Below, one piece after another: positions 26,059-32,000 of a stretch of 64,000 bases of DNA. The stretch comes from Vicugna vicugna. Its lineage: Eukaryota. A program made the translations under genes and the position numbers. The stretch spans positions 5,006,066 to 5,070,065 of the forward strand of contig MU058221.1 of NCBI GenBank assembly GCA_013265495.1, in the 5' to 3' direction. The notes under the pieces were generated by a model. The model was not told the DNA's origin. It saw nothing but the letters and a program-made list of their open reading frames with translations, and made no database searches. Position 1 is the stretch's first letter. Every line of letters starts with the position of its first letter.

Positions 26059-29000
26059 ATGAATGAAAACTCTTGCTCTTTCCAAAATGAGAAAGAATTA
26101 AGAGATGGAGAGGTAAGCAAGCGCTTCTCTTCGGGAAATAAGGTGTTGGTTTGGGATATGCTGTTAATGGTCGTAAGACAGAGCATCTATGAAGACAGTG
26201 TGGAGCTTTAGAAATGTTTAGGGAAAATCCTCATGTAGTTCTCTTTGTTCGCCTTTCGTCACTTCTGGATCAGTTCCCTTTCCTGATACCTTCTTCTAAG
26301 TGGGTTATGGGATTTTGGTTTGGATTTGCTTGGGTGGGAGGAGAATTTCAACACAGGATTCCCCAGAACATTTGTATTTCATCGATTTGGATTGTTTACC
26401 TTATAGGCCCTTTCTCTCTCAAACACCTACTTTGACCTGATTATCCTCAGGACCCTTGGTTCACTGTGCTGTGTCTTGTGTGAGCCTGGCAGGTACCTCT
26501 ACGTCCTTACCTTTCTCACTACCTTGCCCAGAAACAGTCTTAAATGGAGCCTGTGGGATTCAGTGGACAGAATGGGGACAAAGTCTTTGCTTCGAAAGCC
26601 CAGGAAGGTTTTCTTCACTGTGCTAAGACAGGTGAACTGGTCTTCCAGAGGGGAGTCTTTGGACACCGGAGGGGACTGAGTCGGAGAGGGAAAGAGGGGA
26701 TGTGATGAGTCCTGAGCACACAGGCCATGCAGGAAGTTGTTCAGCACGATGAATCACCGGATATTTGAGACCGTACCTTGTGCCTCGTGCTGTGCAGATG
26801 GGTGTGAGAAATACAAAACGTATCCGAGGAGGTCCCTGCGCTCAAAGCAGCCGAGTCTGATTCGGGAGGCGGGTCTTTTGCAGAAGACCTGTGCTTCATA
26901 CAGAAGGGCTGTAGGACTTAGAGAAGGGAGGGCCCATTTTACCCCCAGTTGGTAACGTCATCCCCCCTGAGAAGACGGAACTGATCTCGATGGGACTAGA
27001 GGACACAGAAAGTTGGGGCGGGGTGGGGTATTCTGGGGGGAAACCACGTGACCCAGGGGATGGAGGGCAGAGGAACTGCAGGAAGTGTGTTCGTTGGGTT
27101 GAAGTGGGAAAGAGTAGTATTCAGGCATCGTGAGCCAGTTGTAGAGGAGTTTGCTCAGCTGTGGTGTGTTTGGGTGCCCATTCTTGTGTCCCGAGCATAA
27201 AGAAATTTTAAAAAATCAAGGCTGTGTTTAAGGAGTGTTAATTGGTGAAAACACGTAGGAGGGTTTAGAGTAACGGGACAATCTGGGATTCCAAGGCTTT
27301 GACATAAGTGATGATTCCTTTATTAGTTATTTTCTTTTAATAATTATTTTTCCTTTTGTTTATTTTGGAGAAAATAGTGCATTCACATGGTGCAAAATCC
27401 AAAAAGTGCAGAGGATGCACATATAGTGAAAAAACGACCTTCTGTTCGTGTTCCCCCAGCCACCTCCTTTTTCCTTCTGGAGACAAAGTTACTACTTCCT
27501 TGGATATAATTCTGGAAATAGTCTCTGCAAAGTCAGGAAAATATATTTATGTGTTTTTAAAAAATACAAATGGCTGGTATTGTTTTGTTTTATGAGGGGG
27601 AGGTAATTAGGTTTCTTCACTGATTTCCGTTTGGAGGAGGTGCCCGGGATTGAATCCGGGACCTCTTGTGTGCTGAGCATGCGCTCTGCCACTTGAGCTA
27701 TACCCTTCCCCCTGGCAATACAAACGGTAAAATAGTATATATACTCTGCCCTTTGCTTTTTTACTTAATGTAGCATGAAGATTTGTTTCATATTGTCTAT
27801 AAAGCACTTTCTTATTCTTCTTTATGGCTCTATAGGATCTCATTGAGTGGATATGCTTTAATTTGTTTACAATTAGTCCATTAATGACAACTAGAACTGT
27901 CACGGTGATCATTTTGAAATATATAGAAATACTGGGTTGCTATGTTGTATACCAGGAGATAACACAGTGTTGTATGCCAATTATACTTCAAAAACAAGCA
28001 AACAAACTCATAGAAAAAGAGATCAGATTTGTGGCTACCAGACGTAGGGAAGTAGGGGAGGCGGAACTAGGTAACGGGAGGCAGAAGGTACAAACTTCCG
28101 ATTGTAAGAGAAGTACTAGGGATGTAATGTACAACATGATAAAGATAATCAACACTGCTGTATGTTATAAATGACACTTGTTAAGAGTGTAAATCCTAAG
28201 AGTTCTCACCACAAGGAAAAAAAAATTTTCTGTTCACCAATGTTGTATTATATGAAATGATGGATGGTCACTAAGCCTACTGTGATCATTTCATGGTGCG
28301 TGCAAGTCAAATCATGATGCTGTACACTTTAAACTTACACAGCGCTGTGTGTCAGTTACACCTCAGTAAATCTGAGGGAAAAATTAAAAGTCCGTTAGCG
28401 GGCATTTAGGGTTTTCCTAGCCTTCTGCTATTCTAAACAGCACTACTAGTCAATCACACTGTACGTCGTTTTGCACAAGGATGAGTCTGCCTGTTAGTTA
28501 CATTTCTGGAGTGCAATTGTAGGCCCAACATATAAACAGCATGTATGATTCCGTCAGGTATTATCGAGCTGTGGAGGTCGTAACAGTTTGCTCTCCAGTG
28601 ACTTATAACTCTTGGCCATCTATCCAGCGCCGCGTTACCACGCTTTTTGATCTTTGATAACAGGATAAGTGAAAAATATTATCTCAGAGTAGTAGCATTT
28701 GACATTTCTCTTGTCGTGAGTAAGGCTGAGCATTTTCCCATACGTTTAAGAACGATTTCTGTTTCCTTGTGTGTTAACTGCCCACATCCATGCCCATTTT
28801 TCTACTGGGTTGGTTTTCACCCTTACTGATTCGTAGGATCTTTTTTTTTTTTTTTAACATACTGGAAAAATTAGCCTTGTATTGGTTATAAGAATTGCAA
28901 AATGTTGGTCAGGCAGTTTTTTAAGCTCCAGTAGAGGGAAGGCTTGGCTGAGCAGAAAGGCCAAAAATGAAGAAACTGCCTCACTGAACGTTACTTACTC

Positions 29001-32000
29001 AGAGCTCTGAGACCTTTAACGGAGCCAAGACATCTGTATAAGATTTTTGCAGTTTTTCATAAGACTAGATTACACAAAAATTTTCCGTTGCAGTATTTGT
29101 TGTAGTTGACTTTTGGGGGGTTCATGCATTGTGCGTGTGTGTGTGTGTGTGTGTTAGTGTTACTGGAAAAGGTGCGACATTTTAGCTCTCGCCTTTGGGG
29201 GACTGCTGCGTGCCCGGGAGACTGACTCTGGTTTGTCCTGCAGGTTGAAAGTGTGTCTGCTCCACCCTGTGACAAGGACAGCAGTACGTTACTTACTCAG
29301 AGCTCTGAGACCTTTAACGGAGCCAAGACATCTGTATAAGATTTTTGCAGTTTTTCATAAGACTGGATTACACAAAATTTTTCCGTTGCAGTATTTCTTG
29401 TAGTTGACTTTTTGGGGGTTCATCCATTGTGTGTGTGTGTGTGTGTGTTAGTGTTACTGGAAAAGGTGCGACATTTTAGCTCTCACCTTTGGGGGACTGC
29501 TGCGTGCCCGGGAGACTGACTCTGGTTTGTCCTGCAGGCTGAAAGTGTGTCTGCTCCACCCTGTGACAAGGACAGCAGTGCCCTTCTGGCTTTCAGAGGA
29601 ATTCCTGTACGTGTCACCCACACCTCGATACCTCCTGCCAGTAGCAGCTCATGTTGTGTGCCGCTGTGTTGGTGCACAGACCCCGCCCTCCAGTAGCCCA
29701 CACTCCCGGGGTAGAGGGTGCTGGGGTGCCGGAGGCACAGACAGGCAAAATAACCTCCATCCAATAAGATACTTGTTATAATGCAGCAGAATATCAAGTG
29801 TGGCAGAATGCCGAAGGCGCACCACCGTCTCTCTGAGTTGAGTGAATTTTTGTCTGTTTACTGTTCAAGGAAGGCATAGACTTGCCCCCACATCGCCCAC
29901 CTTCTACACCCTAGTTGGAGTTTTCCACGTTCCTCTCTTTAAGATCGGCTTTAATCAGTCCATCAGGGAAGGCTAGATCCTTCTGGCCTTAAGTTTCAGG
30001 AACACTCAGTACAGCGGGTGGGATGGGTTGGTGTGGATGGGGGACCATGGATTCTGCCCTCACACTAAAGTCAGCTGCCCCCGCAGATCTCGGAGTTGAA
30101 GAACCACGGCATCCTCCGGGCCCTGACAACAGAAGCTAATGGCTGGGAGCCAGGTGGTAAGGTCGCCCCTTCGGGGTCCTCAGGGCCTGGGTGGGATACA
30201 AGGCAGAGCTCCCCAAGGGTCTGCTTTTTATCGTTTGAATGTCTCTCACTACTTTGCCTACAGAATTTTATAGCTTTATCATTCTTCAAGGAGAATGAGA
30301 GCCAACACTGGATCAGGAGTCAAAAGACCTGAGTTCCTGAGTTCTAATTTGACCCCACAAGCCCTGCTAGTGGCTTACTGTGTGCCTTTGAGCAAGTCAT
30401 GTGATCTCTGTGTCTGCAGTGGAAACATTAGTACCTCCTTTATCCTCAAAGGGATGTTGTGATAATGCCATGAGACAGAGTGTGTGAAGAGGCTTTGAAA
30501 AGTTATCTGTTTCATCTGATTTGCATGATTCTTCCCATACTATACTTAAAGCTCATTCGCCTTGCTAATTTTTTTGGTGTGTGTGTTTTTTCTAAATTGA
30601 GTTATAGTCAGTTTCCAATGTTGTGTCAATTTCTGGTGTACAGCACAATTCTTCAGTCATGCACAAACATACATACATTCCTCTTCATATCCTTTTTCAC
30701 CATGAGCCACTACAAGATGTTGAATATATTTCCCTGTGCTGTACAACTACTTGCTAATTTATTACACCAAAAAGCACACTCACCAGCTCACAAGAGTCAG
30801 GTATCTCTGGCTTCAGTCCTGACTCTCATCCACCAGCAGCATGACCTTGAGTAATTAACTCAATCTTTCTAACCCTCATTGTCCTCATCTATAACACAGG
30901 GATTATCTCAGAATCTATGTGGTAGGAACCTGATAAGGATTAAATGCTTAGCACACAGATTGTAAACCGTGCTGAGTGCTCACTGGTACGCATCGTTATC
31001 TTTAAATTCTGCAAATTGAAATGTAATCTCCGAGAATATGGGCCTATTAAAAATATTCTAACGTAGAGAAGTTATCTGTAGGTCTGTGAAGTTTCTTTTA
31101 GTTAAGTTTTGTCTTGACCGTGTAGTGACAAACCTAACGTTTATCTGAGATTTTGCCTTAAATGCAAAATAATCTCTATTTCAGTACAGCTGGCATTTAT
31201 GTGCCAGACATTTTTAATCATATTAAACGTTAGAATTTTTTTCCAGATGGCTCTCAGCTACTTTAAATTAATAGGCTGACCACGTCAGCAGTGCTGTGTA
31301 CTCTGTGAATAACTAGAAGAAACCCTGAGTAACGGAGGCAGCTGAAAAAAGGAAAAAAGAGCCGTACACGTGTGAGCTGGGTTGGTTATCCTGGAGATTT
31401 GGCTCCGCCATCTTCTGTTCGTATGAGGGGGTGGGAAAGTAGTATTTATGTCAGGACCATCTGCAGAGGTGGGGGCTGTGTACCCGGTCCCTGAAGGAAA
31501 GGAAAGATGCTCTTACACAGGCTGGATGTTCGTCTCTAATTTGGGTACCAGATTGCGATTGCTCCTTGAGACCTTGTCCATCCTGTTGACTACGCTGCTA
31601 TCACAGCCAACTGGCCCCACCCTTGCCTGCGAGGTTGGCCTCCTGGCTCACAGTCTTTGATCAGCTTGTTTGTAGGTGAAAGTGTGCAGGGTGAAAGATT
31701 GATAAAGTAGCTCGTAACCATCTGAAGCGTGGCGAGTCAGCAAAGTCGGATGGACTCTAGCTGAAGTGCACTGAGCCCTCACCTTTGGACCACATACACA
31801 CGCCCCTAGAACTGAAGAGTTACAGTCCCGAGAGGGATTGCAGATGGTTGCTGGAAGAGTCCAGCAAGTGAGTGTCGGGGATGAAAAGCAGACGAGCTGT
31901 GGGCTCTGCCGTGTGCGTTCCAGCTCTCCTCTCCTGCTTCCCCACTGCCTTCTCGTCCCCATCAACCATTCATGTTTTGAGGTTTCGGTAGCATTTTATT

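Follow-up and report, generated by a model that had tools for sequence, protein, structure and literature searches.

A tandem duplication over the coding exon 2 acceptor of vicuña ELMOD3, with a candidate pseudoexon and a putative decoy acceptor

The 64,000-nucleotide (nt) stretch of the vicuña (Vicugna vicugna) genome analyzed here (contig MU058221.1, positions 5,006,066 to 5,070,065; the window, to which all positions below refer) contains on its forward strand ELMOD3, the gene of a GTPase-activating protein for ARL2. Within this gene, the end of an intron and the beginning of coding exon 2 (C2) are present twice in the assembly, head to tail, and the upstream copy provides a second acceptor followed by a cut-off exon. 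The interpretation that we favor, by a modest preference, is that of a real, selectively neutral and mostly skipped decoy acceptor.

A search with the last exon retrieved mammalian ELMOD3 proteins, the dromedary protein being on top (97%). Eleven coding exons with an intact frame of 379 residues were located between 26059 and 42614 by tblastn with the Camelus ferus protein and refinement of the boundaries. The predicted protein differs by 5 residues from that of C. bactrianus (P0144) and by 7 from that of C. ferus, and the PF04727 (ELMO_CED12) domain is found at residues 155–311 of P0144, which marks the gene as an ELMOD3 orthologue. At residues 292 and 376 the window matches whales and ruminants, not camels, which fits a camelid outside Camelus. 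The part of the protein encoded by C2 is N-terminal, variable and distant from the ELMO domain, and all nine internal coding exons are at least 69 nt long. Predicted isoforms without C2 exist in beaver and kangaroo rat (P0088, P0089, P0098), and C2 looks like a weak exon, easy to skip. Upstream of the coding part, an ELMOD3 exon lies at 25228–25289 (plus strand), followed by the donor GAG/GTACGG after 25289 and containing an ATG at 25265 that opens an upstream open reading frame of 7 codons; the dromedary (P0002) and rhinoceros (P0174) models appear to splice this exon directly to C2, without coding exon 1 (C1). The 207-nt intron at 35103–35309 (plus strand) is kept in frame in the dromedary RefSeq model P0001, and the corresponding frame in the window has a stop where the dromedary has Trp.

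In the global alignment, the two copies (298 and 294 nt) show 287 matches, 7 substitutions (3 transitions and 4 transversions) and one 4-nt gap, which sits in the TG tract, a microsatellite. They are adjacent and have unique flanks, and the junction (29285/29286) is blunt, with no base common to the flanks and the copy ends. Both copies begin inside the intron, contain a branch-like motif followed by a modest pyrimidine tract and CAG, and take in the 42 nt with which C2 begins; only copy 2 continues into the last 27 nt of the exon, with the 7-nt purine run at 29595 (the longest of the exon), and into the donor at 29607. The duplication is beyond chance: no other direct repeat of at least 45 nt in the 63.8 kb scanned has its copies side by side. 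It is missing from the 11 rows returned by Tandem Repeats Finder for the whole window.

The intact frame passes through copy 2 only. All three camels have Val as the first residue of C2, as do 39 of the 46 other proteins caught by the pattern (of 148). Val is retained in the truncated copy 1 and the complete exon has Ala (residue 19), a T/C difference at 29245/29539, which fits independent histories of the two copies. As to this residue in South American camelids, none of their ELMOD3 proteins is among the 120 of 130 matches listed, nor among the members listed for the ELMOD3 clusters (at most 15 per cluster, in clusters of up to 162).

Table 1. Positions of the duplication, the exons and the splice-related features in the window.
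Feature	Positions	Strand	Remarks
ELMOD3 exon C1, coding part	26059..26112	+	ATG at 26059, 18 codons; strong donor GAG/GTAAGC, score 6.18
Duplication copy 1	28988..29285	+	298 nt; end of the intron with its acceptor, plus the 42 nt that open C2; retains the camel Val codon
TG tract of copy 1	29136..29153	+	9 pure repeats; ~90 nt upstream of the decoy acceptor
Putative decoy acceptor	29221..29243	+	Branch-like motif (A at 29225), modest pyrimidine tract, CAG; same as the real acceptor
Candidate 40-nt pseudoexon	29244..29283	+	Frameshift
Junction-made donor-like 9-mer	29281..29289	+	GCA/GTACGT (GT from copy 1, ACGT from copy 2); score -0.75, 5 U1 pairs
Duplication copy 2	29286..29579	+	294 nt, continuous with the remainder of C2; derived Ala codon at residue 19
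In-frame TAA	29337..29339	+	Codon 50; met by any exon from 29244 that runs past the junction
TG tract of copy 2	29428..29447	+	10 repeats; lies 145 nt after the junction donor and 18 nt before the donor at 29465
Cryptic donor	29463..29471	+	AAG/GTGCGA, score 3.36; with the decoy acceptor, 222-nt pseudoexon 29244-29465 and 72-nt intron left
Real coding exon C2	29538..29606	+	69 nt, phase 0-0; donor CCT/GTACGT, score -0.27, weakest of 10
ELMOD3 coding exon C3	30087..30156	+	tblastn and boundary refinement

The candidate 40-nt exon has splice motifs at both ends, CAG at 29241–29243 and a weak donor with GT at 29284. The decoy and the real acceptor share the 23 upstream bases, with the branch-like A at −19, and are identical across 40 upstream nt. 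Donors were rated by an approximate frequency matrix of rounded values and by their pairing with U1 rather than by MaxEntScan or SpliceAI, and donors of the GTRNGT type are underrated by this matrix. Nine of the ten ELMOD3 coding donors score between 2.1 and 8.1, the exception being that of C2. The junction donor forms 5 pairs with U1 (−1.7 kcal/mol), compared with 7 pairs plus a wobble for the real C2 donor (−3.1 kcal/mol). Among the 992 GTs in the ELMOD3 coding introns, 178 match or beat the junction donor and 138 match or beat that of C2; the cryptic donor at 29465 outscores every other GT from 29244 to 29620. When breakpoint pairs were simulated on the single-copy state (20,500 pairs), a junction-spanning donor as good as the observed one arose in 1,569 (7.7%), a GTRNGT hexamer at the junction in 877 (4.3%), and some donor as good at a usable distance in 19,779 (96.5%). 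Since comparable donors arise this often, the junction donor is mild luck, and the copied acceptor is the real novelty of the locus. Local RNA folding, to which no weight was given, yields the same unpaired value for both acceptors (0.29) and a slight advantage for the real donor (0.37, compared with 0.22 for the junction donor). Rfam yielded no matches in 26200–32600. A recursive splice site at the decoy acceptor was also considered and rejected, as the regenerated donor scores −3.78.

Spliced ahead of C2, the 40-nt exon leaves a residual intron of 254 nt and brings a stop at codon 33 (TGA, 29540–29542); with C2 skipped, the stop is at codon 49. When the upstream acceptor is combined with the real donor (363-nt form), the frame ends at the TAA of codon 50 (29337–29339), and no use of the upstream acceptor avoids a stop at codon 33, 49 or 50. 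The codon-33 stop lies 97 nt from the ATG and has 9 exon junctions downstream, the premature stop thus being well upstream of the last junction. Nonsense-mediated decay (NMD) is often inactive near the start codon, with a boundary described as ~21 to 100 codons depending on the gene (PMC12776119). Because the codon-33 stop falls in this start-proximal zone, the decay of transcripts carrying it is uncertain. Even if it escaped NMD, a transcript with the 40-nt exon would yield no full protein, since the first in-frame Met to follow, residue 168, lies within the ELMO domain.

Much of this anatomy had been anticipated by the original prediction: the copying of the pyrimidine tract, the CAG acceptor and the first 42 nt of coding exon 2 agrees with the alignment, and the junction indeed carries the same GTACGT hexamer as the real donor (CCT/GTACGT, 29607) and, with the copied acceptor, bounds an exon at 29244–29283. 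Both predicted stops, the immediate one for the 40-nt exon ahead of C2 and the TAA for the upstream acceptor alone, were found where described above. The span then given, 28988..29606, has the correct start; its end is that of the real exon, beyond the last duplicated base (29579). A donor of higher score at 29465, which would pair with the same acceptor, was overlooked.

The duplication is, in our judgment, quite probably real DNA and not a product of the assembly alone. The opposing explanation, that a single real copy was written twice and that the differences represent alleles or local read errors, is unlikely, though the best supported of the alternatives. It draws on public sequencing runs: 14 runs (DNA or of unstated kind) contain at least half of the words sampled from 28700–30000, with shares of 0.68–0.81 and never above 0.81 (sampling standard deviation 0.034), the best runs being just below the 0.84–0.85 expected for a single-copy haplotype. 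Two copies merged during contig building fit these shares equally, as popping of bubbles between near-identical copies would presumably yield the same values. Six RNA or presumed RNA runs hold 0.05–0.17 of the words and give no evidence either way, and the shared acceptor has no exact match in the metagenome contigs scanned. An artefact would also be in line with the 4 transversions among the 7 changes, with two changes at homopolymer borders and five within 60 nt beside the microsatellite, and with the derived residue being in the copy that holds the full exon. The transition deficit (P = 0.15) and the clustering (P = 0.08) are suggestive but fall short of significance, and there is no N in the window. 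Seven or more differences are too many for two alleles, the probability being 4e-5, 8e-4 and 0.03 at the trial heterozygosities of 0.3%, 0.5% and 1%, respectively. The earlier argument that an identity of ~97% with substitutions speaks against an assembly duplication thus holds with respect to collapsed alleles and not with respect to local sequencing error.

The divergence between the copies is 2.4% (7/294 sites). With the mutation rate of 7e-9 per 5-year generation given in PMC7331169, it would correspond, for a real duplication, to an age of 8.5 million years (My), with a 95% range of 3.4–17.5 My; gene conversion would make this value an underestimate. The estimate exceeds the Lama–Vicugna split, placed at 2–3 My in the same source, and therefore all four South American camelid species should carry the duplication. 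As the copies differ at 7 of 294 sites, ELMOD3 has apparently tolerated the decoy for a long time. The changes from copy to copy give no sign of selection on it: under neutrality, an unchanged 40-nt acceptor is expected with P = 0.38 and an unchanged donor with P = 0.81, values that have little power with 7 substitutions.

The sequence of events that would account best for these features starts with one blunt-ended tandem duplication in the ancestor of the South American camelids, by which ~250 nt at the intron end were copied together with the 42 nt that begin C2. The downstream copy, still attached to the remainder of the exon, would be the one that is spliced, favored by the length of the real exon and by its tail with the 7-nt purine run. 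The upstream copy would be left as a decoy acceptor with a cut-off exon, skipped in nearly all transcripts. Such skipping would be helped by the short length, by the loss of the 27-nt tail, and by a donor slightly weaker than the already weak real one. The flanking UG tracts, of the type used by TDP-43 to silence cryptic exons, may add silencing. Some leak from the decoy is plausible; in the 40-nt, 222-nt or 363-nt form it would lead to a premature stop and would represent splicing noise rather than regulation. The silenced decoy acceptor had been the second option of the original prediction.

Several observations weigh against a silent decoy. The real donor (−0.27) is barely above the junction donor (−0.75), so that strength alone does not explain the choice between them, and the exon start after the acceptor is better in copy 1 (AG/GT) than in the real C2 (AG/GC). 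The introns contain few GTRNGT hexamers, which the matrix underrates (56 in 15,216 nt). The real exon has the upstream UG tract in front of it as well, the downstream tract is 145 nt off, and the purine run is a presumed exonic enhancer.

On the same evidence the 40-nt exon could be measurably included (above ~5% before decay) and lower the output of ELMOD3, as a tolerated accident that is neither regulated nor selected. The identical acceptor, a junction donor with the same hexamer and within 0.5 bit of the real one, the ample residual intron of 254 nt and the weakness of C2, as suggested by the beaver and kangaroo rat isoforms, would all permit this. We nevertheless hold it to be improbable in view of the fewer U1 pairs at the junction, of a length below that of any internal coding exon and of the lost tail. 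A short-protein search with the camel N-terminus, a weak and insensitive test, gave 5 matches among 6 candidates, none of them camelid.

Marginally less probable again is a leak of the decoy mainly to the 29465 donor (222-nt exon with the UG tract) or to the real donor (363-nt exon), by which the locus would contain a cryptic exon of the TDP-43 type. The 222-nt form would use the best-scoring donor of the region, with the 10-repeat TG tract ending 18 nt upstream of it. It would leave a residual intron of just 72 nt, near the mammalian minimum, and the same donor was already 72 nt ahead of the acceptor before the duplication. UG repeats are also described inside exons of this type (PMC5289002).

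Very unlikely, in our view, is a frameshifting exon born in one step at the junction and included in a tissue-dependent manner in South American camelids to lower the dose of ELMOD3. A regulated and selected poison exon born at the junction, tuning the dose through NMD, has the least to recommend it and can nearly be dismissed: the junction did make a GTRNGT donor (4.3% of simulated breakpoints), the acceptor and donor are undamaged and inclusion brings a premature stop, but undamaged sites are expected neutrally (P = 0.38 and 0.81) and the stop at codon 33 is within the range of 22–100 codons in which NMD is described to switch on (PMC12776119). The NMD-coupled dampener of the original prediction is weakly supported in view of the weak junction donor (the hexamer of the weakest donor, 5 U1 pairs), the stronger 29465 donor, the start-proximal stop and changes that fit neutrality.

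In the most likely case, a silent decoy acceptor within a small intronic duplication specific to the lineage, the feature matters little. It does offer a natural test of exon definition, with two identical acceptors 294 nt apart that differ mainly in the downstream sequence. It can also mislead the mapping of reads to camelid ELMOD3 and the annotation of this gene, where it may produce a false heterozygous V19A variant (29538–29540) and a misplaced exon start. Were inclusion substantial and regulated, the locus would present a rare dated poison exon from one structural event in a gene that is tied to human hearing loss (PMC3764207). The duplication of part of an exon would then have given rise in nature, at a datable point, to a functional poison exon, and the single-copy Old World camels would serve as the control.

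Elsewhere in the window, a 97-nt segment occurs twice, at 15135–15231 and 16132–16228 (997 nt apart, 95% identity, unrelated flanks), in an intron of a minus-strand neighbor gene. This multi-exon gene (~11960–23530), whose translated exons look like RETSAT, is arranged head to head with ELMOD3. The related segments 22108–22214 and 22987–23097, ~880 nt apart and with 85–91% identity, lie in its first intron and possibly represent an older local duplication. One short interspersed repeat family, presumably a camelid short interspersed element (SINE), is dispersed at 6628, 20260, 21171, 21863, 27605 and 35805, with further copies at 37765, 45391, 50855, 58272 and 60221.

No published report of the ELMOD3 duplication in camelids was found among the papers listed by searches of a mostly open-access literature; PMC12841649 deals with insertions of retro-elements and has no bearing on the locus. 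Internal gene duplication is described as a route of gene-structure change by which latent splice sites are exposed (review PMC3443670, citing Gao and Lynch 2009 and Hellsten 2011), and the present case resembles it in that a splice signal is doubled by a short intragenic tandem copy and latent sites come within reach. In the model presented there an exonic AGGT is copied and an intron is created, whereas in ELMOD3 an intron–exon border was copied, with a spare acceptor and a truncated exon within an existing intron as the result. The pseudoexons of DMD as described in PMC7175933 are likewise out-of-frame, exon-like segments arising from structural change, and a de novo donor is known among them (PE45). 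They were seen in patient RNA and mostly use intronic sites beside whole-exon duplications, while the ELMOD3 candidate is predicted from genomic DNA, is a partial copy of a real exon and is probably old.

The cryptic exons repressed by TDP-43 are non-conserved, have UG repeats upstream, downstream or within, and bring a stop when included (PMC5289002), features that the ELMOD3 candidate shares. In the latter, 90 and 145 nt separate the flanking tracts from the 40-nt exon, and the likeness is one of sequence. With the poison exons of SR-protein genes the candidate has in common a cassette exon whose inclusion brings a premature stop (PMC11387194, PMC13228269). Those exons are deeply conserved, measurably included and autoregulated, unlike the ELMOD3 candidate, which appears lineage-restricted, shows no sign of constraint in its few copy-to-copy changes and has a start-proximal stop. 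Outside splicing-factor genes, unproductive splicing is characterized as mostly noise (PMC11387194), and primate-specific exons averaged less than 10% inclusion in PMC2592719. A pseudoexon, as defined in PMC7175933, is spliced into a measurable share of transcripts. Although the 40-nt segment has the motifs and the stop that are expected of a poison exon, we do not file it as one, and it is best classed as a pseudoexon candidate.

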